From NCBI RefSeq assembly GCF_030013205.1, contig NZ_CP122648.1: a stretch of 64,000 nucleotides of DNA. One strand, written 5' to 3'. Source of the stretch: Escherichia coli. GTDB taxonomy: Bacteria; Pseudomonadota; Gammaproteobacteria; Enterobacterales; Enterobacteriaceae. Positions 29,065-52,822 of this stretch are shown here, one piece after another (the stretch's first letter is position 1; each line of letters begins with the position of its first letter). Made by a program: the position numbers and the translations under genes. Under the pieces are notes generated by a model. That model made no database searches, was not told where the DNA came from, and worked only from the letters and a program-made list of their open reading frames with translations.

Positions 29065-29091
29065 GCCTTACGCATCTCGAAGCGGGCGTAG

Positions 29092-29165
29092 TTCAATGGT
29101 AGAACGAGAGCTTCCCAAGCTCTATACGAGGGTTCGATTCCCTTCGCCCGCTCCAAACAAACATT
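29092..29165 (+). tRNA. glyU: tRNA-Gly (anticodon CCC)
   Basis: 74-nt cloverleaf GCGGGCG...CGCCCGCUCCA; anticodon stem AGAGC/GCUCU around loop UUCCCAA; T-arm GGUUCGAUUCC. Confidence 0.95.
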
Positions 29166-29319
29166 TCTCAACGTCTACTAAAGTCCATCAAACCCACGAA
29201 TATCAAGCCTTCCAGCCATTTTCATAGTTTATTAACGTCTACTCACAACTACCAGAATCTACACACAGAAGTGTATAGTAATGCGTATAGGACAAAATTT
29301 ATTTTTTGGAGCTATACAC

Positions 29320-30534
29320 ATGCTGCTTTCAGACCTTGCCATCAGGCGCGCGAAGCCGAAAGAAAAGGCTTATACACTCAATGACGGTAACGGGCTTTCG
29401 TTGCTCATTGAGCCGAACGGTTCGAAAGGGTGGCGACTGCGCTACAGGTTTGCAGGAAAGCCCAAAATGTTGTCGTTGGGTGTGTACCCTGATGTGTCTC
29501 TGTCTGATGCCAGGGCGGCAAGGGATGAGGCTAAAAGGCTTCTTGCTGGTGGTATAAATCCAAGTGAGGCCAGAAAAGCCCAAAAGCGAGAACAGGCGAG
29601 CAAATTTGGCAATACTTTTGAGGGTATTGCTCGCGAATGGTACGAAAAGCGGATCGACAGGTGGTCATCGTCATACGCCGAGGAAATGATCGAGACGTTT
29701 GAAAAAGATGTTTTTCCGTACATTGGCGGTAGGCCGATCGCAGAAATTAAGCCGATGGAATTGCTGGCGGTTCTTTCCCGTCTTAATGACCGTGGTGCGA
29801 CTGAAAAATTGCGTAAGGTTCGCCAGCGATGCGGCGAGGTGTTCCGGTACGCAATCATCACCGGACGCGCCGAATATAATCCAGCCCCTGACCTGGTGAG
29901 CGCATTTGCTCCACATAAAAAAGAGCATTACGCCTATTTGAAGGCCGACGAACTGCCGGAATTTTTCCGCGTTTTTAATACGTACACCGGAAGCCAGATC
30001 GTCAAACTGGCAATGCGGCTATTAATTCTGACAGGTGTCAGACCCGGGGAATTACGGCAGGCAGAATGGCAGGAGATCGATTTTGATAATCGTTTGTGGG
30101 AAGTGCCTAAAGAACGAATGAAGATGCGCCGTCCGCATTGTGTGCCATTACCAGAACAGGCGATAAAAATACTGGAGCAGTTAAAAAACATGACAGGCCA
30201 GTATCAGTTTATTTTCCCCGGTCGTATTCGCCACAGTAAGCCAATGAGTGAAATGGCGATGAATGTGCTCATTCGTCGTATCGGCTATGCCGGGCGCGTT
30301 ACTGGTCATGGATTCCGGCACACCATGAGCACCATTTTGCATGAGCAGGGCTATAACACTGCGTGGATAGAAACGCAGCTCGCGCACGTCGATAAAAACT
30401 CAATTCGTGGCACGTACAACCATGCGCAATATCTGGACGGGCGGCGGGAAATGCTTCAGTGGTACGCTGATTATATGGATTCGCTCGAGCATGGCGGAAA
30501 TGTGGTGCATGGTGAGTTCGGAAAATGCGGGTGA
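29320..30534 (+). CDS. int: tyrosine integrase, P4 family
   Basis: ORF track 29281..30534; start taken at MLLSDLAIRRAKPK (29320); catalytic HGFRHT and RGTYNHA motifs. Confidence 0.9.
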   Translation: MLLSDLAIRRAKPKEKAYTLNDGNGLSLLIEPNGSKGWRLRYRFAGKPKMLSLGVYPDVSLSDARAARDEAKRLLAGGINPSEARKAQKREQASKFGNTFEGIAREWYEKRIDRWSSSYAEEMIETFEKDVFPYIGGRPIAEIKPMELLAVLSRLNDRGATEKLRKVRQRCGEVFRYAIITGRAEYNPAPDLVSAFAPHKKEHYAYLKADELPEFFRVFNTYTGSQIVKLAMRLLILTGVRPGELRQAEWQEIDFDNRLWEVPKERMKMRRPHCVPLPEQAIKILEQLKNMTGQYQFIFPGRIRHSKPMSEMAMNVLIRRIGYAGRVTGHGFRHTMSTILHEQGYNTAWIETQLAHVDKNSIRGTYNHAQYLDGRREMLQWYADYMDSLEHGGNVVHGEFGKCG

Positions 30535-31460: not shown

Positions 31461-31475
31461 CGCACCATACCGCAT

Positions 31476-31619
31476 ACCCTGAGGGTGATTTACTGTTACC
31501 CTGAGGGTATTTTTTTATCTTCCCCGTCAATTTTACCATCACCCTTAGGGTAGATTTCCTCCCGATTACCATCACCCTTAGGGTAGATTTCCTTCCGGTA
31601 ACCATTAGGCCTGAGGGTA
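31476..31619. repeat. five copies of an imperfect palindrome CCCT-n-AGGGTA upstream of alpA
   Basis: Copies at 31476-31486, 31498-31508, 31541-31552, 31574-31585, 31609-31619; a 25-bp unit ACCATCACCCTTAGGGTAGATTTCC occurs twice. Confidence 0.7.
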
Positions 31620-31687: not shown

Positions 31688-31885
31688 ATGTCAAATACGC
31701 TTATTCGTTTAACAGAAGTTCAGCGTAGAACTGGATATAGCAAGGCATGGATTTATCGCCTTATGGGGCAAGGTAAATTTCCTGCATCAGTTAAAATTGG
31801 CTCGCGAGCTATTGCTTTCGTTGAGAGTGAAATTGACGAGTGGATTAATCAGCGTATTGCGGAATCACGCGGAACAGCTACCTGA
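31688..31885 (+). CDS. alpA: AlpA-family phage transcriptional regulator (MerR-like HTH)
   Basis: 65-aa ORF; VQRRTGYSKAWIYRLM...FPASVKIGSRAIAFVESEIDEWI is the AlpA signature. Confidence 0.85.
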   Translation: MSNTLIRLTEVQRRTGYSKAWIYRLMGQGKFPASVKIGSRAIAFVESEIDEWINQRIAESRGTAT

Positions 31886-31962: not shown

Positions 31963-32763
31963 ATGAAATTTCCAAAAACGCCCGTACAGGGGCGGGGCTT
32001 CGTTCGGCCTGAAAACCAGAATCTGCAAAATTTCGGCGAAATTATCCCGATTATTTCCGGCGTTATTGGCGGGAGTGAAACCACTATTGTTAGCGCCAGA
32101 GCGTTACATAAGGCGTTAGGTGTAGGGCGCGTTTTCCGTTCGTGGATCAAGGGGCGCATTGAAGAATATGGGTTCACGGAAGGCGTGGATTATAAGGTTG
32201 TTGAATATTTGAGCCGACCCGATCCGGTGAGCGCAAAATCTCGCCAGCAAACCGCTCTTGAGTACATCATCACAGTGAACATGGCGAAAGAACTGGCGAT
32301 GGTCGAACGTACCGAACAGGGCCGCGCCGTTCGCCAGTACTTTATCAAATGCGAGGAGGAGCTACACAAGGTTGCGCCTGTTCGTTCCGCAGCGTTACGC
32401 CGGGAACTGAAAGCCCGTATCACAGTTGCCAGCTACTTTAAGCCAATGTGTGCCGCGCTGGAGGCGTACCGGGCTGAACTGGGTAAAAACACACTCCAGC
32501 ACCACTACACCACGGAAGCGAACATGCTGGCGCGTATCGTGCTGGGTGGCATGACTGCAAAACAGTGGGCACTGGCGAACGGCATTACAGGCGAACCACG
32601 CGACCACATGAGCACGTTGCAGCTTGAGCACCTTTCTTACCTTGAGCAGAGCAATATCACGCTGATTGAGTTAGGCCAGGACTACCACCAGCGGAAGGCT
32701 GAATTAATTCGTCTTTCGCAGCGTTGGTTAGCCCGTCGCATGGAGGAAAACAGCCATGTGTAA
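31963..32763 (+). CDS. phage antirepressor-like protein (Bro-N/AntA-type N-terminus)
   Basis: 266-aa ORF; the N-terminal region resembles phage antirepressor proteins. Confidence 0.6.
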   Translation: MKFPKTPVQGRGFVRPENQNLQNFGEIIPIISGVIGGSETTIVSARALHKALGVGRVFRSWIKGRIEEYGFTEGVDYKVVEYLSRPDPVSAKSRQQTALEYIITVNMAKELAMVERTEQGRAVRQYFIKCEEELHKVAPVRSAALRRELKARITVASYFKPMCAALEAYRAELGKNTLQHHYTTEANMLARIVLGGMTAKQWALANGITGEPRDHMSTLQLEHLSYLEQSNITLIELGQDYHQRKAELIRLSQRWLARRMEENSHV

Positions 32764-33237
32764 CGCTCTGACCGTTACAAAAAGAAAAAGCGCCCCGTTG
32801 CCGGAGCGCCTTTGTGAACGAATAGCCTACTGCGCCATATTGCTTACTGTCTACGAGGCAGATTATAGCGTTGTGGTCGCACAGAGTGAAGGCGCTGATC
32901 ACCGTTACTACAGCACACCAGAAATGCAGAATATTTTGCTGCAAAATGTCGTTGGCCACGCTGTCCGGAAAGCAAAAAATTTTGCTGGTGGCGTGACTGA
33001 TACGATTTTTTCTGGTTGCTCGGTGCTGATCAACTTAACCTGGACTTATGTACAACATTGCAACTATTCCTACTTTAAGCTGAATGTAACTTTACCTATA
33101 TCATTAGAGGTATGGTCGCGCTTGACCTCAATTTCACCATTTTGTAGCCCTGCTACAAAAAAATATAAAAGTGTCAATGTTGCTGCAATCAGTAACCATT
33201 TTCCAAAAATATACATTCTTGATTTTACCCTTAATCG

Positions 33238-33411
33238 TCAACCTTTTGGCACGATGCCTCGCTGTTGTAATTCTTTGCGGAGCACTCGTTTAATCCAGGT
33301 AGCTAATGAGGTGTCGCCGTCTGCTTTGGCTGCCTCCTCAAGTTGTGCCCTAAATTCTTCTGGTAGCCGCATTTGGTATGGTGGCGATCGTTTTTCTAAT
33401 GGTGTTGACAT
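33238..33411 (-). CDS. Arc/MetJ-type ribbon-helix-helix DNA-binding protein (57 aa)
   Basis: Manual translation MSTPLEKRSPPYQMRLPEEFRAQLEEAAKADGDTSLATWIKRVLRKELQQRGIVPKG; below the 60-aa ORF-track cutoff; start abuts a palindromic operator. Confidence 0.6.
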   Translation of the reverse strand: MSTPLEKRSPPYQMRLPEEFRAQLEEAAKADGDTSLATWIKRVLRKELQQRGIVPKG

Positions 33412-33451
33412 GGTAATTACCCATAATTACTATAGTTACACGGTAATTACC
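33412..33451. promoter_or_regulatory. putative operator: two perfect GGTAATTACC palindromes 30 bp apart
   Basis: Palindromes at 33412-33421 and 33442-33451 in the divergent region between the Arc-like gene and the 33548 gene. Confidence 0.55.
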
Positions 33452-33547
33452 ATTGTACTTACCATTGCAAAAAAAACAACGCCCCGGACTGCGGGAACAG
33501 TACCAGGGCGTCTAACCACCAACGATAGCGAAAGTATCGAGGTAGCT

Positions 33548-33751
33548 ATGATAAATCATACCACACACCCGCAAGGGCGGGACTCGCACAACCTGAATAA
33601 ATACATCTGGCGTTTTATCGCCCTGAGCACGGCACAACCGCGCGTGATTCACATCGAGGCCACCAGCGAACAGGAAGCCCGCCAGCAATCTCCTGATGGC
33701 TGCGTGATGGTATTCGCTGCCCGTATTCGCCAGGAGGTACGCCATGATTAA
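33548..33751 (+). CDS. hypothetical small protein (67 aa)
   Basis: ATG at 33548 with a GAGG RBS; 8-nt overlap with the next ORF. Confidence 0.55.
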   Translation: MINHTTHPQGRDSHNLNKYIWRFIALSTAQPRVIHIEATSEQEARQQSPDGCVMVFAARIRQEVRHD

Positions 33752-34115: not shown

Positions 34116-34406
34116 ATGAAAAAGAAAAATTCTGGCTTTACTGCCAGCGGCCCCGCTCGGCCTGAAATCAAACACGGCGATATTTACCGCGACACCAGAC
34201 GTGGGGGACGAGTGGTTATTCGTCACGTTACGCCAGGCAATATCACCTACCGCCGTGAGGCTTACGAATATGACTGCGTAATGCCGCGCCGTCAGTTTGA
34301 GCGTGATTTTATTCTGGTGGAAAACAAACAACAGGCGGTGGCGAGACGTGCAGCCACGAATATTAAAAAAATCCGGGCAATGTTGGTTGCGGGAGGTAAG
34401 AAGTGA
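34116..34406 (+). CDS. hypothetical protein (96 aa)
   Basis: ORF track; 4-nt overlap with the primase start. Confidence 0.6.
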   Translation: MKKKNSGFTASGPARPEIKHGDIYRDTRRGGRVVIRHVTPGNITYRREAYEYDCVMPRRQFERDFILVENKQQAVARRAATNIKKIRAMLVAGGKK

Positions 34407-36208
34407 AAAACGCCCCGAATTTAAAATATCAGCCGAAGGATAAATTCACTGAGGTAATCATTTTTGCCGGGACGGATGCTTACGCCCATGCTCAACACTG
34501 GATTGAAAGCGAAGGACGAAAACACGGCGATAACGTACCACCTGTTTACCTGGGGCCGAAGCAACTGGCAGACCTGGCGAACATCCGCATTATCGACGAA
34601 GGGCGCCGCTTTGCGCGTGTCTATATCGCAGGGGAGATCGAACCAATTCAGATCAACGCTATCGCCGAAAAGCTGGCACTGGCTGGCGTACAGGAGGCGA
34701 AATTATACAAAGGCATCACCGACCGGGAGCCGGAGAACTGGCGCGATTACCTGCAACGGATCCGCGAACAGGCAGAGCGCGGGGAAGTTTCAGCGATGAA
34801 ATTAGTCACAAAAAATAGTGACCTACCCAGGCCAGCACTAAATCAGATGGGAGCCAGCCAGAGAGGGGAAGTATTGCTTGAATATTATGGAAGGGCACTG
34901 GCTATAAATGACGATTCTGATGTAGTTCACCATTACAACGGAATTGTCTGGGAGCCTGTATCTGATAAGGAACTCCAGCGGTCTATGGCGAAGATTTTTA
35001 TTGATGCTGGAATCAGTTATTCGCAAAACGCCATTAAATTTGCCGTAGACACAATGAAATTGAGCCTGCCTGTTATGGGCGGGGCAGACAGGAATCTTAT
35101 TGGATTCAGTAACGGGGTATTTGATACCCGGACAGGAAATTTTCGGGAGCATAACAAAAATGACTGGTTGTTAAATGCCAGTGAATTACCGTTCAGCCCA
35201 CCAGCAGAGGGGGAAACGCTGGCAACACATGCGCCGAATTTCTGGAAGTGGCTGCGTCGTTCGGTGGCAAATAACGATCGTAAAGCGGATCGCGTACTGG
35301 CGGCATTATTCATGGTACTGGCGAACCGGTACGACTGGCAGTTATTCCTTGAGGTAACGGGGCCGGGCGGAAGCGGTAAAAGTGTGATGGCGGAGATTTG
35401 TACCATGCTGGCGGGTAAGGCCAATACAGTATCGGCGAGCATGAAGGCGCTGGAAGACGCGAGGGAACGAGCGTTAGTGGTGGGATATTCTCTGATTATC
35501 ATGCCTGACATGACCCGCTACGCAGGTGATGGTGCTGGGATTAAGGCCATTACAGGCGGTGACAAGGTGGCAATCGACCCGAAACATAAAGCCCCCTACT
35601 CCACACGTATTCCGGCGGTAGTGCTGGCAGTAAACAATAACGCCATGTCATTCAGTGATCGCAGTGGAGGGATCTCGCGTCGTAGGGTGATATTTAATTT
35701 CTCTGAGGTCGTACCGGAGAACGAACGCGATCCCATGCTGGTGGAAAAAATAGAAGGCGAACTGGCGGTAGTGATTCGCCATTTGCTTACACGATTTGCC
35801 GACCAGGACGAAGCGAAAAGACTACTTTATGAGCAGCAAAAATCAGAAGAAGCACTGTTAATAAAGCGTGAAGGTGATTCGCTGGTGGACTTCTGCGGTT
35901 ATCTGATGTCGTTGGTTAAATGTGAGGGGATGATAGTAGGTAATGCAGAAATAGTGCCATTTAGCCCGAGGCGATATCTGTATCATGCTTATTTGGCTTA
36001 TATGTCTGCGCATGGTCTGGGAAAACCGGTATCACTGACACGCTTTGGTACAGATATGCCAGGGGCAATGGCTGAGTACGGAAAGGAGTACAAGCGGGCT
36101 AAATGCACTAAAGGTCCAGATAAAGGGCGAACGATCACAAATGTTCTGTTAGATAAAGATGCTGATGGATGGTTACCAGCAGCGGCAGGCATTAACGACA
36201 GAACATGA
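34403..36208 (+). CDS. phage/satellite-type DNA primase-helicase (P4 alpha / D5-like)
   Basis: 601-aa ORF; Walker A GPGGSGKS; followed directly by an iteron array. Confidence 0.8.
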   Translation: MKNAPNLKYQPKDKFTEVIIFAGTDAYAHAQHWIESEGRKHGDNVPPVYLGPKQLADLANIRIIDEGRRFARVYIAGEIEPIQINAIAEKLALAGVQEAKLYKGITDREPENWRDYLQRIREQAERGEVSAMKLVTKNSDLPRPALNQMGASQRGEVLLEYYGRALAINDDSDVVHHYNGIVWEPVSDKELQRSMAKIFIDAGISYSQNAIKFAVDTMKLSLPVMGGADRNLIGFSNGVFDTRTGNFREHNKNDWLLNASELPFSPPAEGETLATHAPNFWKWLRRSVANNDRKADRVLAALFMVLANRYDWQLFLEVTGPGGSGKSVMAEICTMLAGKANTVSASMKALEDARERALVVGYSLIIMPDMTRYAGDGAGIKAITGGDKVAIDPKHKAPYSTRIPAVVLAVNNNAMSFSDRSGGISRRRVIFNFSEVVPENERDPMLVEKIEGELAVVIRHLLTRFADQDEAKRLLYEQQKSEEALLIKREGDSLVDFCGYLMSLVKCEGMIVGNAEIVPFSPRRYLYHAYLAYMSAHGLGKPVSLTRFGTDMPGAMAEYGKEYKRAKCTKGPDKGRTITNVLLDKDADGWLPAAAGINDRT

Positions 36209-36236
36209 TACGAAATTTATAAGTTGAAACTTAAAA

Positions 36237-36572
36237 GTAGACGGTTGGTAGACAGATACACTTAACCCTCTACCAACCATCTACTAATTAATGTTTTGAA
36301 TTATATAGGTATTTTTAATGTGGTAGAGAGGTGGGCAGTTATTTCTATATTCCTAAACCACGGGGGGTATATAAAAAAACAGATAGTTAAGGGTTCATTT
36401 TTTAAATTTCTCTTTTAACTGTCTACACTGTCTACCATTTAGTAAAAATCATTAATTATCAATGTATTAATGCGGTAGACAGTTAGTAGACAGTTTGCAG
36501 ATTGTTTTTTTGTTATGAGTTAATAACATTAAATAAATCAATCAATTATATCGGTAGACAGTTGGTAGACAG
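36237..36572. repeat. putative replication origin: paired GGTAGACAG iterons flanking an AT-rich segment
   Basis: GTAGACGGTTGGTAGACAG (36237-36255), inverted copy (36268-36284), TGGTAGAGAGGTGGGCAG (36321-36338), inverted pair (36419-36436), GCGGTAGACAGTTAGTAGACAG (36473-36494), TCGGTAGACAGTTGGTAGACAG (36551-36572). Confidence 0.7.
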
Positions 36573-36580
36573 TTGTAACG

Positions 36581-37123
36581 ATGGGGCAAAGCATGACTAA
36601 GCTGACCATTAACAGAAAACCGAAAGGCATTTATGGCACGCCGCAGAAAACGACGCAGGCGGCACAGGAGCAGGATAAAACCACGTCGGCGCATAAAGTG
36701 ATGCCCGGTAACCAGAAAGCGCAGCAGAAGCCCACAGGGGCGACACCGTGGCGGCATATGACCAAGCGCCAGCGCAAAAACCGCAGGCGCATTAACCGCC
36801 TCACTGAGTTGTGGCCTGAATTATTCAGCCGGGAAGCACCGAAGCCGCTTAAGGTGGGGATATTCGACGACCTGATGCAGGATCTCGCCGTCAGGGGGCT
36901 GGCATTCGGTCCAGGGGCATTGCGTGCGACGCTGGCATCTTATGCACAGTGTCCGCGCTATTACCGCGCCTTAATGGCTGGTGGGGTACGCTACGACCTG
37001 AAAGGCCAGCCGTGCGGCGAGGTGACACCACAGGAACAACAGGACGCAGAAACGCGGCTGGTGGCGCTGAATGAGAAGCGCAAACGTCAGCGCCGGGTAG
37101 CAAAGGAGAAAACAGGCGCATGA
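36581..37123 (+). CDS. ProQ/FinO-domain RNA-binding protein
   Basis: PLKVGIFDDL...LRATLASYAQCPRYYRAL...YDLKGQPCGEV parallels ProQ (PLKIGIFQDL...LRSALRLYTSSWRYL...VDLDGNPCGEL). Confidence 0.75.
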   Translation: MGQSMTKLTINRKPKGIYGTPQKTTQAAQEQDKTTSAHKVMPGNQKAQQKPTGATPWRHMTKRQRKNRRRINRLTELWPELFSREAPKPLKVGIFDDLMQDLAVRGLAFGPGALRATLASYAQCPRYYRALMAGGVRYDLKGQPCGEVTPQEQQDAETRLVALNEKRKRQRRVAKEKTGA

Positions 37124-37407
37124 TTCACGACAGCAAAGCGGAAGCACTGGAAGCGCGTGGTCTGTACCGGAGAGCGGCGGCGCGGTGGGCTGAGGTCATC
37201 ATGCTGGCGAATGATGACAAGGCACGGGAACAGGCGGCAAAACGTCGCGCGGAATGTATCCGCAAGGCAGCACGCCCACCAGCACGGCAGGATAATTTCG
37301 GGGAGATGCGCGAAACCATCAGCCGGGCACATGCCGGGATGGGATTACATCAGCCCAATGGTAAGGCATTCAGGAAATACCCTGGATCGAAAAATTGCAG
37401 TCAGTGA
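37120..37407 (+). CDS. PerC-family transcriptional activator-like protein
   Basis: 95-aa ORF; SKAEALEARGLYRRAAARWAEV matches the PerC-family N-terminal signature; ATGA overlap with the upstream gene. Confidence 0.6.
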   Translation: MIHDSKAEALEARGLYRRAAARWAEVIMLANDDKAREQAAKRRAECIRKAARPPARQDNFGEMRETISRAHAGMGLHQPNGKAFRKYPGSKNCSQ

Positions 37408-37608
37408 CGGAGGCCGGGATTTTTCCCGGCTTTTTTGTGCCAGTAAAAAGCCCGCAGCCAGAAGTGTTGCGGGCTTTGTTTTTCAGGTGATTGAAGTCAA
37501 TGGGAAGAACGCGATCATCATGCGTTATTGTTTCATAAATTGCAATGATGTAGATCGTCATTTCAGTTTGTGCAATCATAATCGTTGTTTTGTTCAGGAG
37601 ATATGACT

Positions 37609-41917: not shown

Positions 41918-42445
41918 ATGTTTATGAGCAAGGCAGAATATGCCAAACACAAAGGCGTAAGCCGCCAGACAGTTTACGACTGGATCGAGAAAGGCGAAGT
42001 GATCATGTCTGGCAAAAAAATTGATGTGGAAGCGACAGAGCAGCGGAACAGCCCACCAGCACAGGGAAAAGATACCGTTTCTGAAATGTGGCCAGAGAGA
42101 ACGCTGGAAATGACGTGGGGCGAGTTCTGGAAAGCAGTTAAGGCCAGAGACGGTAAAATCCCTGCACCAGTAACGGACAATGACATACAGCAGCGTGTAC
42201 AGGATGCAGCCGGGGAACTATGCTGTGAAGTGCAATTTCTTGATGATGGTGCTATCTGCCTTGAGGATTATGCTGGGCAATATTACTTTGAGCAGTATGA
42301 TTTTCGGGAAAATGCCAGGCTGGCAATTCGTATGCTGCGTTGTGAGCTCTGCTATGTTGCAGGTGATTGTCCCGATGAGCTGGATAACTGGAGTGAAGCC
42401 GGACTAAACGCCCTGGCTGAGTGGGAAAAATCAGGCCATCAATGA
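41918..42445 (+). CDS. HTH protein resembling terminase small subunit Nu1 N-terminus
   Basis: N-terminal KAEYAKHKGVSRQTVYDWIEKGEV resembles the lambda Nu1 winged-HTH region; GAGGGGA RBS; 175 aa. Confidence 0.55.
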   Translation: MFMSKAEYAKHKGVSRQTVYDWIEKGEVIMSGKKIDVEATEQRNSPPAQGKDTVSEMWPERTLEMTWGEFWKAVKARDGKIPAPVTDNDIQQRVQDAAGELCCEVQFLDDGAICLEDYAGQYYFEQYDFRENARLAIRMLRCELCYVAGDCPDELDNWSEAGLNALAEWEKSGHQ

Positions 42446-42451
42446 CCTCAA

Positions 42452-42732
42452 AAAGTGTCAAGTTGAGCAGCTTGCCAGGTTGACACTTTACACTCTGAAC
42501 GCGAAAAAGTGTCAACCTCGCTGTAAGCCCCGCCATTACTGGCCTTTCGCCAGATTTACCACGTCAAAAAGCCGAAAAAATCGCGAAAAGTGTCAAGTTG
42601 CCATGCTTAGAAATGCTAAGGTTTGATAAGGTTTTTCGCGAAAAAGTGTCAAGTGTGTCAACCTGCGATGTTAAGATTTGTTAAGGTCTTAAGCCGGAAA
42701 GTGTCAACCAGCCCCCTAAGATTTCCTAAGGT
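42452..42732. repeat. array of AAAGTGTCAA direct/inverted repeats interleaved with TAAGATTT-nn-TAAGGT motifs
   Basis: AAAGTGTCAA at 42452, 42506, 42587, 42643, 42698; inverted copy 42480-42489; TAAGATTTnnTAAGGT at 42673 and 42717. Confidence 0.75.
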
Positions 42733-42919: not shown

Positions 42920-43385
42920 GCGGAACGTTCGGTAAGGCTACAGCCAAGCCAAACATTAAGCCTACGGGTAACCCTTCGAAGGGGCTTTAAAGGGGAGATG
43001 ATTATCCTTACCAGTTGATAAACAAGCAAACCTCAAATTTGAGGTTTGTATCTGCCTGACTTATTTTTGTGCTAAGTTGTTGATATATCCGACGACACAA
43101 ATTTGCGTTCTGTGGCTGGTGGTGGCGAGTTACGACCGATCATTTCCTTCCTGGCAGGTTACATCCTGCTGCTCAACTACTACGGTAGCCACTACGATTA
43201 ACTACGCGATGCCGATATGGGGATTCCCATATCGGTTTATCCGTGATCATCCACCAGCTTGATCACGGTTAACAGGGGATGTGTAATCCCCAAGCGAGTG
43301 ATAAATGTGTATAGAAATGTGTATAGAATTTATTTTAGAACTCGCGAATGCGCCTTTATTACTGGCCTTGTGGCTTGTTGTATTG

Positions 43386-43403
43386 TTCCCTTCGCCCGCT
43401 CCA
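43386..43403 (+). repeat. att direct repeat (18-bp copy of the glyU 3' end) at the island 1 / island 2 junction
   Basis: TTCCCTTCGCCCGCTCCA is identical to tRNA positions 29148-29165. Confidence 0.85.
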
Positions 43404-43900
43404 GAATCTCCCCAGGTGGAGAAGACTAAAAAAGTCTTCTCTGTCAGCAACTTAAACAGTTACCTATTTAATTTGCTTAGGAGTTCTACCATTGTGATCC
43501 GCCCTTAGTAACTGTCACGTTAAGTTACTCGGTGAGATGACAGTATAACCTAACGTTGGCGGCAGTTGCACCTCTCACACCGCGATAGCACAACGTGAAG
43601 ATAAAGCCCATCCTGGCATTGTAATGTCATCGACAGACTGAACACACGCATTTAAGCCCGATGTGCGGCCTTGTGGCTGCGTAAACAGGTTTATGGTGAT
43701 ATTGGTCCTTGCAAACCATATGCAAGCTCTATCAGCGTTTCAGCCACGCTCCCAACGGGTACACGGTTATCCTGATAAGGTGTGATCTTTCTGACAATCT
43801 GATGAAGTCGCTACGCTCCCGCTTGTTGCTGTATCACCAACGGGGCTTTATGGTTTCTATTGTCTATAATAATCTCACAATTCCCCTGCATGAGGTTGAT

Positions 43901-44107
43901 ATGACTGTTAGCTACAAGATTACTTATGAGCATAGAGACGGTGATCAAATTAGAATGGAAGAGGTTTTATTCCATTCAGAGCATGAACCAACAAAAGATG
44001 AAATTCATGATGCAGTAAGAAAAGATACTGTGAGATTTAATTCTCCATCTAATGGAGTAACGGCTGTTTCAGGGTTTAAAGTGATTTCGGTTGTCCCTGT
44101 TCCATGA
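43901..44107 (+). CDS. hypothetical small protein (68 aa)
   Basis: ATG at 43901 after a GAGG RBS; ORF track lists a longer 43709..44107 frame. Confidence 0.5.
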   Translation: MTVSYKITYEHRDGDQIRMEEVLFHSEHEPTKDEIHDAVRKDTVRFNSPSNGVTAVSGFKVISVVPVP

Positions 44108-44140
44108 ATGGTTATAGAAGGGGCTGGAAGCCCCTAATTA

Positions 44141-44461
44141 TTACTTCTTAATATCGCCAGTGCATTGATATTCGATAGTCACAAGTGTTTGCATACAACC
44201 AGATGAAGAAGGTTGTGAACATTGAGAAGTGAATCCACCAAAAGGCTCGGCTCCTGAATATCCCCAAGCGGCACAACGCGCTTTGGCTGCATTCATGCCT
44301 TGTTGTGGATCTACAACAGGACTTTCAAACATACCGTAAGAATAACTCATCCTAACTGTGCCGTCTGATTTGCTTCCACCAGTTGGAACGAGTTGTTTTT
44401 TTGTTGCACATCCAGAAATAATCAATGTTGAAGCAAGTAACAGCATTAAACTTTTGCGCAT
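44141..44461 (-). CDS. small lipoprotein (106 aa), Cys-rich
   Basis: Signal peptide with lipobox LIISGC; convergent with the upstream gene across a GGGGCT-GGA-AGCCCC hairpin (44117-44131). Confidence 0.7.
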   Translation of the reverse strand: MRKSLMLLLASTLIISGCATKKQLVPTGGSKSDGTVRMSYSYGMFESPVVDPQQGMNAAKARCAAWGYSGAEPFGGFTSQCSQPSSSGCMQTLVTIEYQCTGDIKK

Positions 44462-45113
44462 GTAAATAATCCCAAGAGATAATGGTTATGTATTGATTTA
44501 AAGCGTTTTTAGATTAATGCATTAACTTAGCAAAATTAAGTCTTTTCTGATTGTTTGCAGAGTAAAAATGAGTTGCTTTCGAAATTATTTCGGATGTTTA
44601 TTGTATTACGGTTTTTCAAACCGTCTAACTATTGTCGCTATTGAATGGGCAATAATAGCAAGAGGATTCATTTCGTCATTGGAGGCAACAAAAAGTCGGT
44701 AACTGATAGCTACAACGAATGAAACAATAACGAGAAAGCGGATAGTGCTAAGATGTTTTGAAGATAAATGCATAACGCCCCCTAAATGAATGTGAGGGGG
44801 ATTAAATCATGCAAATTTGTTGTGTGCAATACTGGTAATTTATCCTAATAGTCTACTATTCACCTCAATCTACGTCAACCAATATTTGATGTAGATTTGA
44901 TTTTCTTTTAAAAACAATATGTTGCAATTTGTTGGGTTTTGGGGTTAGGTTGTTTTTTGGACGTTTCCATCAAGTGTAAAGATACGTTTAGCCTTCATAG
45001 TGAGTTCAGTTACTGTCTTTTTCTCTGAAATCGGCGCATACGTGATCATCGCTTAACGAGAAGATCAGCGCCGTCAGGTCCATGCAGCGACAATTCTGAA
45101 ATATCAGGAGGCA

Positions 45114-45665
45114 TTACGCTTCCTGCTCTTTCTTGATACGTTGCACCGTCTGTGTGCTGACACTGAAATCTTTTGCTACGCTCCGAATTGATCCACCATT
45201 CGCGAGAGCGGCAACAATTCCCGCTCGATCAATTGCTTTTCCATTACCACGTTTTGCTATACGCCCAGCTGCCTTAGCTGCGGCGATCCCTTCACGTTGA
45301 CGCTCAAGCATCATTTCACGTTCCATTTGTGCCACTGCTGCAAGCACTGTGAGCATCATATTCCCTGCGGGAGAGTTCTTCCCTGTCTTAAAGTCTTCTT
45401 TATGGAAATGCACAGACACGCCGCGCTCTGTTAATTGCTCAACCGTTGCCAGAAGGTCGGCTGTATTACGGCAAAGGCGATCAATACTGTGAACATGCAA
45501 AACATCACCTTCCCGCACATAGTTCATCATTGCCTCAAACTGTGGGCGCTGGGTATTCTTGCCTGACGCTTTATCTTCAAAGACTTTATCAAGAGCTACT
45601 CCAGCTAATTGACGGTCTGTGTTTTGTTGCACAGTCGATACCCTAATGTATCCAATATTAGCCAT
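45114..45665 (-). CDS. serine recombinase (resolvase/invertase family)
   Basis: 183-aa ORF; N-terminal IGYIRVSTVQQ with catalytic Ser; C-terminal HTH (SIRSVAKDFSVSTQTVQRI). Confidence 0.85.
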   Translation of the reverse strand: MANIGYIRVSTVQQNTDRQLAGVALDKVFEDKASGKNTQRPQFEAMMNYVREGDVLHVHSIDRLCRNTADLLATVEQLTERGVSVHFHKEDFKTGKNSPAGNMMLTVLAAVAQMEREMMLERQREGIAAAKAAGRIAKRGNGKAIDRAGIVAALANGGSIRSVAKDFSVSTQTVQRIKKEQEA

Positions 45666-46166
45666 TTTCTTTATTCCTTCTGTGTTGATTTGTGTGTAGT
45701 GATTATTGATCGTGTTGATTAGGTGTGTAAAGGACTTTTTTCACTACGAAATTCGAAGGTTTTTAGTGTGGTGATTTAGCCTGCTTTATCACTACACGTC
45801 TTGCATGAGAATCATGTAGTTACGTTTTGGTAAAATTAGCAAGCTATTAAATAGTGTGTTTATTTTGAAAAAATAATTTTTTGTTGCATTAAAGAAAACT
45901 TGTTCGACAAATAATAGATTGATTTTTAATCAATAATTTCTGATAGTGCTCTGTAAGCCGCATTACACAAGGCTTTGCGAAAGTGATGTAAAAGTGAAGA
46001 AAGTAAGAATTGCACTTTTAAGCTACTTTTCATTGAATTTTTAGTATGGAATTACACAGGGATTAATCATCAATTACATTGAATTTAAGCCTGTTTTAGA
46101 TGTTTAATTTTGGTAGCAAGAAACACTTTTAGAAGATCATTGCACAGATGTTATGTGATAAATGGA

Positions 46167-46325
46167 TGTAACGATGGGTTACATTCAGCTATCTGAAATA
46201 CTCTCTGTAAGAAATTTGGTAGTAACGATTCGTTACATAGACTAATTATTGAATGTAACGATATTACACATCGGTAGTAACGATACGTTACATCGGCAGA
46301 TGATTGGTTGTAACGAAAGGTTACA
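46167..46325. repeat. five palindromic sites TGTAAC-n5-GTTACA (and GTAACGA-n-TCGTTAC variants)
   Basis: Sites at 46167-46183, 46223-46237, 46254-46268, 46276-46290, 46309-46325 inside a 1.7-kb non-coding AT-rich region. Confidence 0.75.
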
Positions 46326-47357
46326 CAATAAGACTAACATCTATAATACTAATAATAAAACTAACTATTAAACTATATAATATAATTCTTTTTTATCTTT
46401 ATAAGAATAATTATAGGGATACCCGTTAGGGAGTCTAACGACTATCCCTTAATCTATTGGCATTCGCCAGAACCTTGCACAAGTTAGAGTGTTAGTCGTT
46501 AGACTGCTTGTCATAACACATAGTTTTTGTTTGTTGATGTTAGTTAGTAGATCTATGTTCGCTTTCCGCTCACAACGAATATGTAATCTACTATGTGCAA
46601 ATAGCCTACGGCTTGCGTAAGGCTAAATAGTCTTGCGCTGTGCGCAGAACGATAATTAACTAACTACCATCTAACGATCATCAATCATCTAAAATAAATT
46701 TCTTGTGCAATGTTCTTGCGAATGCAATTAGGGTAGCGTTACCCCTTTGGGGATGCTAACGCATAACTATAGATCAACCATCAAACAGACAAAAAAGAAA
46801 AATATGGTTTAAAGATGTTAGGTAGTAGATGAGTTTCTACCGCTTAAATCAAGCCGTAGGCGAGCTAAACGTATATAAGGTAGGGAAACACTTAGCGGTA
46901 ATAGATTAGCTCGTTATAGAGATTCTGAGGAGCTTTACAGGTATTTTATAAGGTGTCTGAAATTAGATTTTATCTACCATCACCTTTTCATATACCTAAC
47001 AAATACAAAATAAGCACCTTAAATAAGCCTCTGGCGAGCTAAACGGTCATTACATAAGGGAATGTATTGTTTTTATCAAAACCTCGTTAGAACGCGTTTT
47101 AGAGCGTTATTAGACAATAATGAAGAATAGCACTACACAGGAGAGCACGAATTGCTAAGACAAATTATAAATTGCTGAAATAGATCGGATTTTTTGCAAA
47201 ATGGTATTGACAAATGTCTCTTTCTGTGCAATAATAGGTATTAGAGGGACAGAAAACATTCTTATCCTCTAAGTAATTAAACCAATGCACCGCACTTTGA
47301 GCCGTCAGGCTGCAAGGTGTCTTTTTCTTTTAACCAAATAGAATAGGAGGTTAATTA

Positions 47358-47540
47358 ATGAAATATTTCACTCCACAGGATGTAGTAGAAGCCTGGAAAC
47401 GTGGTGAGATCAATCGTTTTAAAGTAAGGATGAACAGGAACACAGCGCGACGCTGTGGTTATCCAGAGCGTGAAAAATGTTTTGACGATGCACTAAAAAT
47501 TATTGATGAACTGCGTAAGGCAGAAGTAGAGAAAGAATAA
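47358..47540 (+). CDS. hypothetical small protein (60 aa)
   Basis: Strong AGGAGG RBS; ORF track. Confidence 0.65.
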   Translation: MKYFTPQDVVEAWKRGEINRFKVRMNRNTARRCGYPEREKCFDDALKIIDELRKAEVEKE

Positions 47541-47561
47541 TAACAGGAGAAGGAGAAAACT

Positions 47562-47729
47562 ATGAGCGAAACTAAGAAACCAATTCCGCGCACTTACCTA
47601 CACGTTGACCCTGAAATCTTCAAGGTTTTATTTGCTGAAGCCAAGAAAAGGCAAATTATGGTCAGTGATTTGATGTTAGAAATCATTACTGAAGCAGCAG
47701 AGAACATCAAACAAAAAAAGGGTAAGTGA
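47562..47729 (+). CDS. ribbon-helix-helix-like small protein (55 aa)
   Basis: Manual translation MSETKKPIPRTYLHVDPEIFKVLFAEAKKRQIMVSDLMLEIITEAAENIKQKKGK; GGAGAAGGAG RBS; below the ORF-track cutoff. Confidence 0.55.
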   Translation: MSETKKPIPRTYLHVDPEIFKVLFAEAKKRQIMVSDLMLEIITEAAENIKQKKGK

Positions 47730-47782
47730 TCCTCATTCACTTTAGTAGCGCATTAAGCGTGATTTATAAGGAGATAATTCTA

Positions 47783-48463
47783 ATGTCTAAAATTAAATTG
47801 ATTCGTGAAAAATACCAGTATGTTGATAAACAAACAGGAGAAATTAAAGACAGAACTTTGAATATACCACACTACTTTTGTGAGATTGAATTCATCTACT
47901 CCTCAAATATTGAGGATGGAAAAGCGAAGTTTAGTGCAGAAATGCAAAAATTATATTGCTATGTTTCAGATTGGGAGAAATCAGGGGGGATATGTTTTGA
48001 AACACAAACGAAGTTAAGTAAAGTTTGTGGCTGTAGCCGTAAGACAGTTAATGAATTGATTGGTCTTATGATTAAAATCGGTCTTTTAGAAGAGGTCGGA
48101 GAACGAATCCCAAAACGTCCTTTAAAATTACGTGCGCTACTTCTCACAGATGCACATATTACTCCCCCTGGAGAATCATCACTACCTGATCCTTCTGAGA
48201 AAGAAGACGAATCTAATGAAATATTGAATGTTTCCGAAATCATCCTTGAAGAAGAAACACAAGAGCCAGAGTTCCCTGAGCGGCCCGAAATTTTTACTTG
48301 GCTTCTTTCCCTTGATAAGAAGAAACCACCGCACGAAGAAACAGAAGATTTTGTAAAACGTGCATTAGATTCAAAGAATATCTATCTTGAGAAACAGGCT
48401 TTTCACGATCTGATAATATCTCTAAGAGAAAAAAGTGAAATATACGATTCAATACCATTCTAA
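47783..48463 (+). CDS. winged-HTH protein (226 aa), possible replication initiator or regulator
   Basis: AAGGAG RBS; HTH-like TQTKLSKVCGCSRKTVNELIGLMIKIGLLEE; acidic C-terminal half. Confidence 0.65.
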   Translation: MSKIKLIREKYQYVDKQTGEIKDRTLNIPHYFCEIEFIYSSNIEDGKAKFSAEMQKLYCYVSDWEKSGGICFETQTKLSKVCGCSRKTVNELIGLMIKIGLLEEVGERIPKRPLKLRALLLTDAHITPPGESSLPDPSEKEDESNEILNVSEIILEEETQEPEFPERPEIFTWLLSLDKKKPPHEETEDFVKRALDSKNIYLEKQAFHDLIISLREKSEIYDSIPF

Positions 48464-48472
48464 GGAGAATAA

Positions 48473-48742
48473 ATGACTTATAACATCACTATAGGAAACA
48501 AAACTATTGAAATAACTGAAAGCGGATACAACATTTTAAAAGCTATTTTGGAAATAGAGTTCTCACCGCCGACAGTGGTTAGCTTTTGTAGTTTAGGCGG
48601 CTACAGCGCACAACACGTGAATCATTGGTTAAACCATTTTACATCGTTCGGTGTGCTGGATTATGAAGGGATTAACAGCACTACATTTCGTCTTTTGAAA
48701 TTAAACAAAGATTTTGAATTGTTTATCACAAACAATCAATAA
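48473..48742 (+). CDS. hypothetical protein (89 aa)
   Basis: AAGGAG RBS; ORF track. Confidence 0.6.
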   Translation: MTYNITIGNKTIEITESGYNILKAILEIEFSPPTVVSFCSLGGYSAQHVNHWLNHFTSFGVLDYEGINSTTFRLLKLNKDFELFITNNQ

Positions 48743-48838
48743 CAACAGATCGGGCAATACATATGGCAAATGCATTTATGGCGATATTCATTGTAACAAT
48801 GGTATCAAGTTTTTATAATCCACATAAAAAGAGGGAAA

Positions 48839-49222
48839 ATGGGAAGAAAGAAAAAGAACAACTTAAAACGTATTGAAAAAAACAGTAACTTCAATTCAAC
48901 AAGACAACGTCCACCGACACACACCAATAACGAAATTCCAGGGGAAGAGATAATATTTATTCTTGAAACAGAATCCCCTGAATTAAGCGATGAAGAATTA
49001 GAAATAATCCAGTCAATGCCAGGCGTTTACTTTCGCCCAAGAACAAGAAAACAAACTATCATTTCTGATGGCACTCTGAAACGTTGGCAGCTTTTAGGGT
49101 TTAGCTCCTATCATCATTTTTTGGGATTTAACGCTTTCAATAATTGTGTAGGTGGTGCATCGGAAGTCGATCTGATGGCTCATTTAGAAGATACATTAGC
49201 TTCTAACAAACGTTCTAACTAA
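48839..49222 (+). CDS. hypothetical protein (127 aa)
   Basis: AGAGGG RBS; ORF track. Confidence 0.6.
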   Translation: MGRKKKNNLKRIEKNSNFNSTRQRPPTHTNNEIPGEEIIFILETESPELSDEELEIIQSMPGVYFRPRTRKQTIISDGTLKRWQLLGFSSYHHFLGFNAFNNCVGGASEVDLMAHLEDTLASNKRSN

Positions 49223-49237
49223 TAAAATGATGGGAGT

Positions 49238-49510
49238 ATGTATAAGCGCCCAATGAAAATAATCGAAAAAGGAAAAATAATGATTAACTATCAACTATTA
49301 GAAACAACATTTTTTAAAGAAGCAAAACAACTTGCAGAAGTGTTTATTTCACTGGCTGAACGAGCAAAAGAAGAAAATGATTTTGCCTTGCTTGATGATG
49401 TGCTGGATGACATTGCAACCTATCGTATACCGCTACAGATTGCACTAAACAAGGCTAAACAGATTCAGCAAGAGATGGAATCAGCAGATCAAGGAGAGAT
49501 TGCACAATGA
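49238..49510 (+). CDS. hypothetical protein (90 aa)
   Basis: ORF track; 4-nt overlap with the next gene. Confidence 0.55.
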   Translation: MYKRPMKIIEKGKIMINYQLLETTFFKEAKQLAEVFISLAERAKEENDFALLDDVLDDIATYRIPLQIALNKAKQIQQEMESADQGEIAQ

Positions 49511-49815
49511 CAGACAACATTCTGGAAGTTATGGACACTCTTTCGGATCGGATGATCGCCCTACAGACACGTATCAATCAAGCCTATTCAGATTTATGCG
49601 ATTACACGCTCTCTCAATGCGTTAGTAGCTTAATGAAGGTGAATGTAAGCCTTGACGATTTCATCTCTCTGGTGAGCGATTTAGAGCTATCTAAGGACGA
49701 TGTCAGGCTGTGTACTCAAACCATCACAGACACCGCCAGCACGTTAAAGGCTGCAAGTGAAGAGATTCAGCAATTAGTAGATGATTTAGCAAAAAGTGCT
49801 ATTTTCTCCAAATGA
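49507..49815 (+). CDS. hypothetical protein (102 aa)
   Basis: AAGGAG RBS; ORF track. Confidence 0.6.
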   Translation: MTDNILEVMDTLSDRMIALQTRINQAYSDLCDYTLSQCVSSLMKVNVSLDDFISLVSDLELSKDDVRLCTQTITDTASTLKAASEEIQQLVDDLAKSAIFSK

Positions 49816-50807
49816 TAATGAAAATCATTTGCATTTATAACGATTTCATTATATAATGATATTAGGGGTAGATAAAAAGGTTTTGACTGGTGTTAATCCT
49901 TCTACTGTCATAAATCCCTGCATATGGAAGGTGATAGCCTCAAGGGTTGAGTGGCATTAACCTCTAACAAATATTACCTTCCATCTCTCAAGAAGTTTTA
50001 GAATAATCATAACTCCCTCTTTGATTGTTGATTGTTTCTACGTTGTGTTGATGAATGTTGTTAGGCATTGTGCTTAATTTTGATAAAAGCGGGTAGGTGT
50101 TATCTCCTTGCCCTTCCCGCTCTTATTTTTCATCTATGCTTATCCTAAAGCTCCTTATTTTGTCCGAAAACATTAAAGAGCCTTACACTGATAGTTATAT
50201 TTTATAACTATTTACTAACATCATTAAACTCTTATTTAATGACAGAAGTTAGTAACAGAATAATCTATTAAGTTGTTGTCAAAAAACTATCATCTGCATA
50301 GCGTTAGCCGCAAGTAGAGAGAGTTTAGTTAAGAATGGTGCAATAAACTTTGGAAATATTGATAGCAAAACTAGTTTTATAGAATGCGGATCTATAATCT
50401 TTGGTTGTAAAAACGATTTTCTGAAACGGTAGATTACTGTTGGTGTAGTTAATCCTTATTAAAAATTTAATCTGTGAGTAGATTGGAATAGTGATTCCTT
50501 AAAATCTGACTGGTGCATCCACACCATGAAAGATAGCAGTTGGCCACCGCGCCCCGAATAGATATTCCTGATTGATTCCGCATGTTTTCCTAAGAGCATG
50601 TTTTCAGGAATATCTGTTCACCCTTTAAACCTATCTTTAAGCATGTTTAATAAGCATTCTTAGAGATACGTTTAAAACCTCCTCAAGGTTTTACTTATCG
50701 CTGTGTATTGCCCGACACGTTAATAAATCCCCCTCGCTATTGTCAGATTGAACCTCTTATAGCCTGGGGGATTTATTAAATTCCAGCATAATGGAATCGT
50801 TATATAA

Positions 50808-51017
50808 ATGAAACAAGAAATTATCCTGAAATATGGCAATGAAAAGTTAACACTAACTGAAGATGTGTTGAATGCTACAGCCTACGCGCTTGGCATCACT
50901 CCCACAGAATTAAAGAAACAGTGTGAACGTCTTTATAAGGCTGAAAGCAATAAACCATCTCACCAAGATTTGATTAATGCTAAAGCTCAACAAATCAAAC
51001 AATCTAAGGAAAAATAA
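50808..51017 (+). CDS. hypothetical small protein (69 aa)
   Basis: ORF track; stop overlaps the next start (TAATG). Confidence 0.5.
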   Translation: MKQEIILKYGNEKLTLTEDVLNATAYALGITPTELKKQCERLYKAESNKPSHQDLINAKAQQIKQSKEK

Positions 51018-51391: not shown

Positions 51392-51407
51392 GAAGGAATA
51401 AATAATA

Positions 51408-52788: not shown

Positions 52789-52822
52789 TAAACAACAATC
52801 ATAATACAGGGAAACAATTAAC

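Follow-up and report, generated by a model that had tools for sequence, protein, structure and literature searches.

A FinO-domain gene and a PerC-family gene form a conserved pair, a candidate regulatory unit, in a phage satellite at glyU of Escherichia coli

Introduction

In a 64,000-nt stretch of the Escherichia coli chromosome (contig NZ_CP122648.1; the whole stretch is called the window below), an integrated island carries a gene for a ProQ/FinO-like protein (36593..37123, plus strand) that overlaps a gene for a PerC-like protein (37120..37407, plus strand), and the E. coli type III secretion system 2 (ETT2) begins some 20 kb further on. This arrangement raises the question of what the two proteins do and for whom: for the island, for the host at large, or for the secretion genes next door, as an earlier note on this DNA had suggested. 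The results showed that the pair is a conserved two-gene unit lying 3' of the primase and iteron origin of a satellite, and that it is closed by tandem terminators. The satellite is about 14.3 kb long, of the phage-inducible chromosomal island (PICI) type, and integrated at the tRNA-Gly gene glyU. We give a probability of roughly 0.6 to the reading that the pair is a bicistronic regulatory unit of this satellite, which takes in its predicted transcription, RNA binding and action on a host regulator.

Part of this picture is known already. PerC homologues have been described on E. coli PICIs (PMC11773190, PMC6092414), as have effects of PICI PerC genes on host virulence and motility genes, FinO-domain proteins are known from plasmids and phages (PMC9977716), and both genes of the pair are in RefSeq. 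In the literature that we searched, neither a FinO-domain protein of E. coli PICIs nor its coupling to PerC was described.

Results

The two genes and their overlap

The open reading frame (ORF) at 36581..37123, listed with 180 amino acids (aa), matched the Pfam ProQ/FinO family PF04352 with 84.5 bits (cut-off 27, E 6.2e-24) over profile positions 4-108 of 109, and the ORF at 37120..37407 matched the PerC family PF06069 with 111.6 bits (cut-off 22.6, E 2.2e-32) over positions 1-89 of 90. Both family assignments had been proposed in the earlier note, and both are borne out by these scores. The note had also called the two genes translationally coupled. The overlap on which that claim was built is real: in an ATGA (...gcgcATGAttc...), the stop codon TGA of the ProQ-like gene (37121-37123) runs into the ATG of the PerC-like gene (37120-37122), and an AAGGAG lies 13 nt upstream of this start. 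Coupling itself is plausible from such an arrangement.

Both genes are annotated by RefSeq in the chromosome of the porcine enterotoxigenic E. coli (ETEC) strain ETEC4079, which is 100% identical across the stretch. RefSeq starts the ProQ-like gene at the ATG equivalent to window position 36593. The GGGCAAAGCATGAC at this start and the GGGCAAAGC that precedes its ATG are kept in a Salmonella homologue, whereas the ATG at 36581 is not. Because RefSeq uses 36593 and the upstream sequence is conserved in Salmonella, the gene probably starts at 36593 and would encode 176 aa, the ATG at 36581 lying 12 nt too early. The PerC-like gene encodes 95 aa. The GC content of the pair is 58-59%, compared with about 49% across the rest of the island in the GC profile.

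The ProQ-like protein has a FinO domain and a basic N-terminal extension

The assignment to the ProQ/FinO family was supported by Pfam, by sequence matches in the Protein Data Bank (PDB), by an AlphaFold2 model searched with Foldseek, and by a family alignment. In the PDB sequence matches, the FinO domain of the protein aligned with the N-terminal domain of ProQ at E 6e-12, and FinO, NMB1681 and RocC aligned as well. The protein scored 58.1 bits against the NCBIfam ProQ equivalog NF003434 (cut-off 127) and 64 bits against the FinO subfamily NF010317 (cut-off 136). Since these scores lie under both cut-offs, we regard it on sequence grounds as an orthologue of neither ProQ nor FinO.

In the AlphaFold2 model, residues 1-55 were disordered and basic, and then came a FinO domain of high confidence with long helices on either side, with a predicted local distance difference test (pLDDT) score mostly >90 over residues 58-175. 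The C-terminus formed a single long helix, the protein ended about 30 residues past the FinO domain, and the Tudor-like C-terminal domain of ProQ was not seen in the model. The top Foldseek match was FinO (1dvo, E 1.2e-6, probability 1.00), and further matches at the same probability were NMB1681 and RocC, the latter also in its terminator-bound form 7rgu; the RocC match had a target-normalised TM-score of about 0.8. In this modelled architecture of a basic N-terminal extension plus a FinO domain, the protein resembles FinO and FopA more closely than ProQ.

Equivalents of ProQ residues K35, R58, Y70, R80 and D82 are present as K87, R111, Y123, R133 and D135. Among 19 satellite homologues in the family alignment, K87, Y123 and R133 were invariant, and R111 and D135 were at least 90% conserved. 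Tyr70 and Arg80 of ProQ are reported to be essential for RNA binding (quoted in PMC7491321). We infer from the sequence that the ProQ-like protein is an RNA-binding chaperone. FinO-domain matches in the phage collection were at most 39% identical and came from Sodalis, Aeromonas, Shewanella and Cronobacter phages; no close phage homologue of either protein of the pair was found in this collection, in which PerC gave two weak matches.

The PerC-like protein is related to PchE

The PerC-like protein was 51% identical to PchE over 90 aa, 46% identical to EcCIMP1_025 and 44% identical to PerC of enteropathogenic E. coli (EPEC), and these identities, the Pfam match and a structure model mark it as a small PerC-family regulator of the PchE kind. 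The N-terminal core (D4, A7, E8, G14, Y16-R17-R18-A19, R22 and W23) is kept across the aligned PerC-family homologues. The model contained helices at residues 5-13, 16-29 and 33-51 with pLDDT 81-89 and no recognisable DNA-binding fold. A fold search of the PDB with this model returned nothing under E = 2, only weak TPR/MIT-like helical matches, and no solved structure showed sequence similarity to the protein.

The functions of the relatives differ. EPEC PerC and the Pch proteins of group 1 activate LEE1, within the enterocyte effacement locus (LEE) (PMC11773190, PMC6265319). PchE, of group 3, is dispensable for ler and espA, represses csgD/curli, ler, eae and lpfA1, and strongly induces flagella (PMC6265319, PMC7369912); PMC11773190 and PMC6265319 describe it as not activating LEE1. 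EcCIMP1_025, when overexpressed, silences LEE1 in Citrobacter rodentium (PMC11773190). The view of the earlier note that island-borne PerC-like proteins alter host expression is upheld by published experiments for these relatives, PchE and EcCIMP1_025, and would extend to the window's protein by analogy.

An ANR-like role for EcCIMP1_025 was hypothesised by Pick et al. (PMC11773190), and ANR proteins lower the function of AraC-type activators (PMC4038620). The NCBIfam model ANR_neg_reg (NF033650) was matched by 28 of 28 PerC-family members at E up to 1, over about residues 6-52, with a best E of 1.5e-7. This result supports the PerC-ANR kinship suspected by Pick et al. and suggests that the PerC family is remotely homologous to the ANR family.

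Distribution and selection of the pair

When 5426 complete E. coli genomes were searched, 238 matched over 80% or more of the two-gene query, which we read as the two genes lying next to each other, and a further 1671 contained DNA related to one gene only. Many of these one-gene genomes probably carry a 114-aa FinO-core gene in a different type of island. In O157:H7 86-24 (comparison locus L017, 9016-9360), such a FinO-core-only gene, with 78% DNA identity to the core, lies beside a dnd/dpt phosphorothioation cluster. Judging from this one inspected locus, FinO-core genes of the kind probably account for many of the FinO-core-only matches in E. coli.

The pair travels between chromosomal sites. 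Proteins identical to the ETEC4079 copies (WP_000164223.1 and WP_000581049.1) are encoded in a satellite between abgR/mcaS and smrA. In strain FDAARGOS_1058 (L009, 3090-3450), the satellite sits directly beside the McaS/IsrA small RNA (sRNA) gene in the abgR-smrA interval, which is a non-tRNA attachment site. Near-identical or related pairs were also found near tRNA-Ile by gabD, at glyU in a strain with a rearranged ETT2 side, adjoining paoCD, and at tRNA-Pro between yejM and yejO, and a related pair occurs in Salmonella enterica subsp. salamae beside an ActS-like gene and a tRNA. Diverged pairs, with 55-86% identity in the ProQ-like protein and 52-72% in the PerC-like protein, stay adjacent, with a 4- or 11-nt overlap or a 2-nt gap.

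These data bear on the simplest alternative, namely that neither ORF has a function, both being annotation artefacts or remnants in decay. Pseudogenes are frequent in cryptic islands, and one related ProQ-like copy, in isolate AF40 (L020, 9507-10324), has an internal stop beside an intact PerC gene. The ORFs of the window, however, are full length and have strong domain scores, the RNA-binding residues are conserved, and hundreds of genomes hold intact copies. Moreover, the ratio of nonsynonymous to synonymous divergence (dN/dS) was 0.07-0.35 across five homologous loci per gene, at dS up to about 1.3 and with the basic N-terminal extension of the ProQ-like protein included, indicating that both genes are under purifying selection. 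Selection and conservation together effectively refute the remnant explanation.

Expression and proposed mode of action

The region upstream of the pair (36209..36580, 372 nt, 31% GC) looks like a replication origin by its repeats and GC profile. It contains about 10 GTAGACAGTT iterons in both orientations, paired 11 nt apart; 9 of the 13 GTAGACAGTT matches of the window fall in 36237-36574, while 2.35 were expected for the whole window. Downstream, two tandem intrinsic terminators on the plus strand (37411..37485), identified by a terminator scan and a fold of -44.6 kcal/mol with a z-score of -4.6, end the unit.

A model for its expression is pchE of the O157:H7 island OI-51, which is transcribed in a polycistronic ECs1586-ssb-pchE RNA that starts in the post-primase intergenic region (PMC7369912); pchE expression is basal without induction and is lowered by SOS induction (PMC6265319, PMC7369912). 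By analogy, the ProQ-PerC unit probably has its promoter within the origin region 36209..36580 and would be transcribed from there with basal expression in the lysogen. The predicted ligands of the ProQ-like protein are stem-loops with a 3' tail, terminator hairpins for instance, in RNAs of the satellite, the helper phage or the host. The PerC-like protein, if it resembles PchE in action too, probably changes host transcription in the adhesion, motility and virulence regulons. It would probably do so in an ANR-like manner, by contact with a regulator, either AraC-type activators or H-NS, and not by DNA binding; a protein-protein mode fits because ANR proteins down-regulate AraC-type activators.

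Points that weigh against a regulatory unit, and a possible role in the satellite life cycle

Several results weigh against this reading of the pair as a regulatory unit. In the origin region, the promoter scan found no well-scoring promoter, the best site reaching 9/12. Because the origin-region promoters score poorly, the predicted expression in the lysogen rests on the OI-51 analogy. The PerC-like protein itself scored 14.4 bits against the ANR model, below the cut-off of 32 (E 0.024). No RNA partner was found when the island, its immunity region and the pair with its flanks were searched with Rfam: only the tRNA and the int-alpA motif were above threshold, and the remaining matches were sub-threshold hairpin matches. 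C4 and isrK RNAs likewise gave no match in the island, with the immunity region scanned to E 10. Minus-strand terminator-like hairpins at 36801-36785 and 36642-36626 have 5-bp stems only, and the synonymous divergence of ProQ-like codons 1-60 was modestly lower than that of the core in two comparisons only. The partnership also varies. Some satellites encode a single-stranded DNA-binding protein (SSB), the ProQ-like protein and an unrelated 138-aa protein, not PerC, and OI-51 encodes ECs1586, SSB and PchE without ProQ. Partners are thus modular across islands, and the two proteins therefore need not act together. Finally, the pair is kept in minimal satellites of roughly 8 kb with almost no cargo.

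Candidate RNA ligands and hidden partners fared as follows. An antisense RNA over the ProQ-like 5' coding region was rejected as unsupported because the stems are weak, the synonymous divergence is not clearly reduced and the DNA is poorly conserved, as seen in diverged homologues. An antisense RNA over the start of the DUF4222 gene (hairpins near 34132-34191) was dropped, with weak stems and no minus-strand promoter found. C4 or isrK as an obligatory ligand of the ProQ-like protein was rejected, since these RNAs are present in the related satellites L002 (23717-23944) and L012 (2899-3568) but missing from the glyU satellite. The terminator behind the PerC-like gene was rejected as a ProQ-specific ligand because it is not specific: pchE of OI-51, an island without ProQ, is followed by a similar GCCGG...CCGGCTTTTTTT terminator, and no such terminator stands after PerC in L012 and L013. 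The FinO subfamily NF010317 calls for a cognate FinP-type antisense RNA, and the Rfam searches of the island yielded no antisense RNA. The idea that the 138-aa partner is a divergent PerC was unsupported, no Pfam match being found, and the single-stranded DNA-binding protein of OI-51 proved to be a true SSB (Pfam SSB 62.5 bits) unlike the ProQ-like protein, so that a hidden FinO domain there was rejected.

Retention in minimal satellites means that the pair could serve the life cycle of the satellite and not the reprogramming of the host. The FinO-domain protein would then chaperone an antisense or structured RNA for satellite replication, copy number or helper gene expression, and the PerC-like protein would modulate a satellite or helper regulator during induction. 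The place of the pair fits such a role: it immediately follows the primase and origin, and many relatives have an SSB gene right in front of it. Where FinO-domain proteins of mobile elements have been characterised, their targets are RNAs of the same element (PMC9977716, PMC7491321), with FopA on Inc/repZ and FinO on FinP/traJ as precedents, and the presence of regulatory RNAs (C4 and isrK) in related satellites is consistent with it. On the other hand, neither an antisense RNA nor a known RNA family emerged as a partner in the island, and the equivalent pchE unit is expressed uninduced and falls on SOS induction. In EcCICFT073, among singly cloned post-origin genes, only rppA blocked lambda or phage 80 (PMC6739421), and the natural AF40 copy combines an internal stop in the ProQ-like gene with an intact PerC gene. 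We hold a role confined to the satellite to be the main, though tentative, alternative. It and the host-directed role are not mutually exclusive.

The position of the pair near ETT2

The earlier note had located eivF, eivG and eivE about 20 kb from the pair, and this is accurate. The start of ETT2 (60583..63032, plus strand), identified from the ORFs and from RefSeq of the identical genome, lies outside the satellite and consists of an eivF-like helix-turn-helix (HTH) regulator gene (60583-61332) and sctC/eivG (61329-63032), with an InvE-like gene from about 63037. ETT2 thus lies about 21-23 kb downstream of the pair, and 20.7 kb separate the pair from the island boundary at 58150.

The last 23 bases of glyU recur degenerately at 43382-43404 and exactly at 58128-58150, which indicates two tandem elements between glyU and ETT2. 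The second element (43404-58150) stands between the satellite and ETT2 and is bounded on the right by the exact 23-bp copy. Its integrase gene, on the minus strand (56822-58042), faces inward, so that the element is oriented opposite to the satellite. Genes for a major capsid protein (51408-52436), a baseplate protein and a resolvase-type recombinase (45114-45665) also lie in it, together with yecR and an IS3 element.

From the distance, the note had gone on to call cross-regulation between island and host plausible, which we took as the idea that the PerC-like protein activates or otherwise controls the ETT2 genes, the proximity reflecting a functional link. Membership of the PerC family and the activation of LEE1 by EPEC PerC and the Pch proteins of group 1 speak for this idea. 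ETT2 does encode an AraC/InvF-type regulator, annotated as HTH domain-containing, and the weak PerC-ANR homology is relevant here, ANR proteins targeting AraC-type regulators (PMC4038620); a homologue of RgdR is encoded by the satellite as well. However, the pair lies near ETT2 as a consequence of satellite integration at glyU, which flanks ETT2, and this accounts for its position. Because the same module sits at no fewer than four other chromosomal sites far from ETT2, in other strains, and also in Salmonella, proximity is no evidence of a regulatory link. The nearest characterised relatives, moreover, are non-activating for LEE1 (PchE) or repress it (EcCIMP1_025). In the literature that we searched, four papers name both ETT2 and PerC, and neither term appears in the title or abstract of any of them. 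In ETEC4079 (L008 11984-13805, past the end of the window), the SpaN/EivJ-like and YscQ-like genes of ETT2 are frameshifted and an IS2 insertion is present, and judging from this sequence the secretion apparatus is probably not functional. The proposed activation is unsupported by these data, and we consider control of the neighbouring ETT2 genes by the PerC-like protein very improbable. Any case for cross-regulation is a weak one, limited to the presence of an AraC-type regulator among the ETT2 genes.

Architecture and class of the satellite

The island was compared with the PICI criteria of Fillol-Salom et al. 2018 (PMC6092414). An integrase lies at one end adjoining glyU, with copies of the glyU 3' end at 29134-29156 and 43382-43404. 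An AlpA-type regulator is present, as are a primase and an iteron origin in which iteron clusters at 36237-36285 and 36417-36574 flank 31% GC sequence. The size of 14.3 kb falls in the range of about 10-15 kb, with a few virion-type genes and without a complete structural or lysis gene set. The CI/C4-type immunity RNA of P4-like elements was not found in the island, and Pfam and PHROG scans of most, though not all, island ORFs returned no member of the sid, psu or delta families.

On the left, tRNA-Gly (CCC) glyU (29082..29155, plus strand; ARAGORN and Rfam tRNA) supplies the attL core at its 3' end (29134-29156, repeat family D1), and a probable attR, a degenerate copy of the same repeat family with 78% identity, lies at 43382..43404 on the plus strand. 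The tyrosine integrase gene (29281..30534, plus strand) was identified by Pfam Arm-DNA-bind_3, Phage_int_M and Phage_integrase and by RefSeq, and its stop is directly followed by the int-alpA RNA motif RF02996 (30579..30646, plus strand; 45.5 bits, gathering score 35.8). The gene next after the motif encodes a 265-aa coiled-coil-like hypothetical protein and is not alpA; the motif is also present in the related island L004 (963-1030). Between the 265-aa gene and alpA, at 31475-31598, there are two short TACCCTGAGGGT(G/A) hairpins and, upstream of alpA, a perfect-register 33-nt tandem duplication (31533-31565 and 31566-31598, 94% identical); these repeats may be a regulator-binding or attenuator region. 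The AlpA-family regulator gene (31688..31885, plus strand; Pfam Phage_AlpA 69.4 bits) is followed by an AntA/AntB-type antirepressor gene (31963..32763, plus strand; RefSeq annotation of the identical genome).

On the minus strand, 33238..33411 encodes a 57-aa Arc-like ribbon-helix-helix protein of the YlcI/YnfO type, called from the ORF list and its sequence (Arc 16.8 bits, under the cut-off); its equivalents are annotated YlcI/YnfO in related islands. A hydrophobic 48-aa ORF follows it in the leftward unit, which is closed by a strong intrinsic terminator (32786..32813, minus strand) with a 12-bp stem, 7 GC pairs and a T-run. The stretch 33412-33451 holds two exact GGTAATTACC palindromes (33412-33421 and 33442-33451), which overlap the divergent promoters, among them the rightward promoter-like site of the icd-like/primase operon at 33405-33433 (TTGACA-17-TACTAT), which scored 10/12 in the promoter scan. 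By its sequence, the region 33070-33480 together with 32786-32813 looks like a divergent regulatory switch. Related satellites carry the C4/isrK RNAs at the position that this putative switch takes in the glyU satellite.

The rightward operon runs in the order icd-like gene, 121-aa ORF, DUF4222 gene and P4/D5-type primase gene. Its first gene, the icd-like one (33548..33751, plus strand), was called from RefSeq annotation. The DUF4222 protein (34116..34406, plus strand; Pfam DUF4222 70 bits) is a homologue of RgdR (ECs1581), 49% identical to it, with the RGD motif reading HGD here, and the stop of its gene overlaps the primase start. In O157, the prophage regulator RgdR/ECs1581 acts on motility and on type III secretion by the LEE. 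ECs1581, too, belongs to the DUF4222 family, which the RgdR paper does not mention. The primase-helicase gene (34403..36208, plus strand) was identified by Pfam D5_N, DUF5906 and Pox_D5 and by the NCBIfam P4 primase C-terminus (95.8 bits, under the cut-off of 108.7). Its first ~140 residues are shared with the DUF927-type primase of OI-51 at 49% identity, while the remainder is unrelated (34403-34820 against L003 5101-5530), which suggests that the primase N-termini are a common module, perhaps for origin or partner binding, set on different catalytic bodies.

Distal to the tandem terminators lie virion-type genes: a DUF2213/protease-like gene, a gene for a 679-aa injection-transglycosylase-like protein that is 52% identical to a protein of phage Rac-SA53, and a small HTH/TerS-like gene of 175 aa (41918-42445). 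The 175-aa HTH protein was rejected as an RppC homologue, having no sequence match to solved structures. Just past this gene, at 42450-42680, repeated CGCGAAAAAGTGTCAA / AAAAAGTGTCAAG motifs and inverted GTGTCAA...TTGACAC arms were seen, and from its sequence the region may serve the satellite as an operator or as a packaging (pac/cos) site.

Discussion

PerC-type satellite regulators are known to shift virulence, curli and motility, and this copy alone would add little to that. What was less expected is the conserved, probably co-translated FinO-domain partner beside the PerC gene. Plasmid FinO-domain proteins control replication and transfer via dedicated antisense RNAs; a satellite-borne FinO protein could reveal RNA-level control of satellite-helper-host interactions, and could reveal a third class of FinO-domain protein that competes with ProQ in many pathogenic and commensal strains. 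In a bolder version, which we consider doubtful, a FinO-domain chaperone with its own RNA clientele and a co-translated PerC/ANR-like protein would form a two-layer module that reprograms the helper phage or the host. Candidate RNAs for such a module would be helper-phage antisense or terminator RNAs, host sRNAs, and mRNA 3' ends normally served by ProQ, and candidate host targets would be adhesion, motility and virulence loci controlled by AraC-type proteins or H-NS, possibly including EivF/ETT2. The locus also carries a caution, as proximity can mislead about regulation when both neighbours favour the same tRNA integration hotspot.

Among known satellites, OI-51 (Sp7, PICI EcCIEDL933), which encodes the group 3 PerC homologue PchE (ECs1588), is close in plan. 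It shares the layout of int, DUF4222 (RgdR), primase, origin, a nucleic-acid-binding protein, PerC and terminator, and pchE is likewise the last gene of a short polycistronic unit that starts in the post-primase intergenic region. It differs in having ECs1586 and SSB upstream of pchE in place of a FinO-domain gene, in its other type of primase, in its iterons (TAACCCGCA there, GTAGACAGTT in the glyU satellite), and in its full capsid and packaging set, which the glyU satellite lacks. EcCIMP1 of E. coli MP1 (Pick et al. 2025) has the common backbone of int, AlpA, AntA, DUF4222, icd-like gene and primase, and in addition virion genes that resemble those of its helper phage, but it has no ProQ/FinO gene, its PerC gene lies at the far end of the island, and it has the C4 and isrK RNAs that are missing from the glyU satellite.

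The ProQ-like protein is similar to FinO of F-like plasmids and FopA of pCol1B9 in its predicted FinO fold, its basic N-terminal extension and its encoding by a mobile element, and all three are without a ProQ-type C-terminal domain (for FopA as described in PMC7491321). Identity to plasmid FinO is about 30-35% over the domain, and FinO and FopA are plasmid-borne and come with the FinP or Inc antisense RNA, whereas the ProQ-like gene is chromosomal, satellite-borne and coupled to a PerC gene. Chromosomal E. coli ProQ has a linker and a Tudor-like C-terminal domain, while the ProQ-like protein has the extra basic N-terminus of about 55 aa.

As for the partner, the proteins of the ANR family (Aar, Rnr, Cnr) are likewise small and helical, and their model is matched by the PerC family, but they are shorter than 80 aa, compared with 95 aa for the PerC-like protein, and no partner AraC regulator is encoded beside the PerC-like gene. 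EPEC PerC (pMAR2 perABC) and PchA/B/C of enterohaemorrhagic E. coli (EHEC) belong to the same Pfam family and conserve the N-terminal core; these LEE1 activators are borne on a plasmid or on lambdoid prophages, while the PerC-like protein is satellite-borne. Compared in sequence with PchE, EcCIMP1_025 and EPEC PerC, the PerC-like protein appears closer to the non-activating group.

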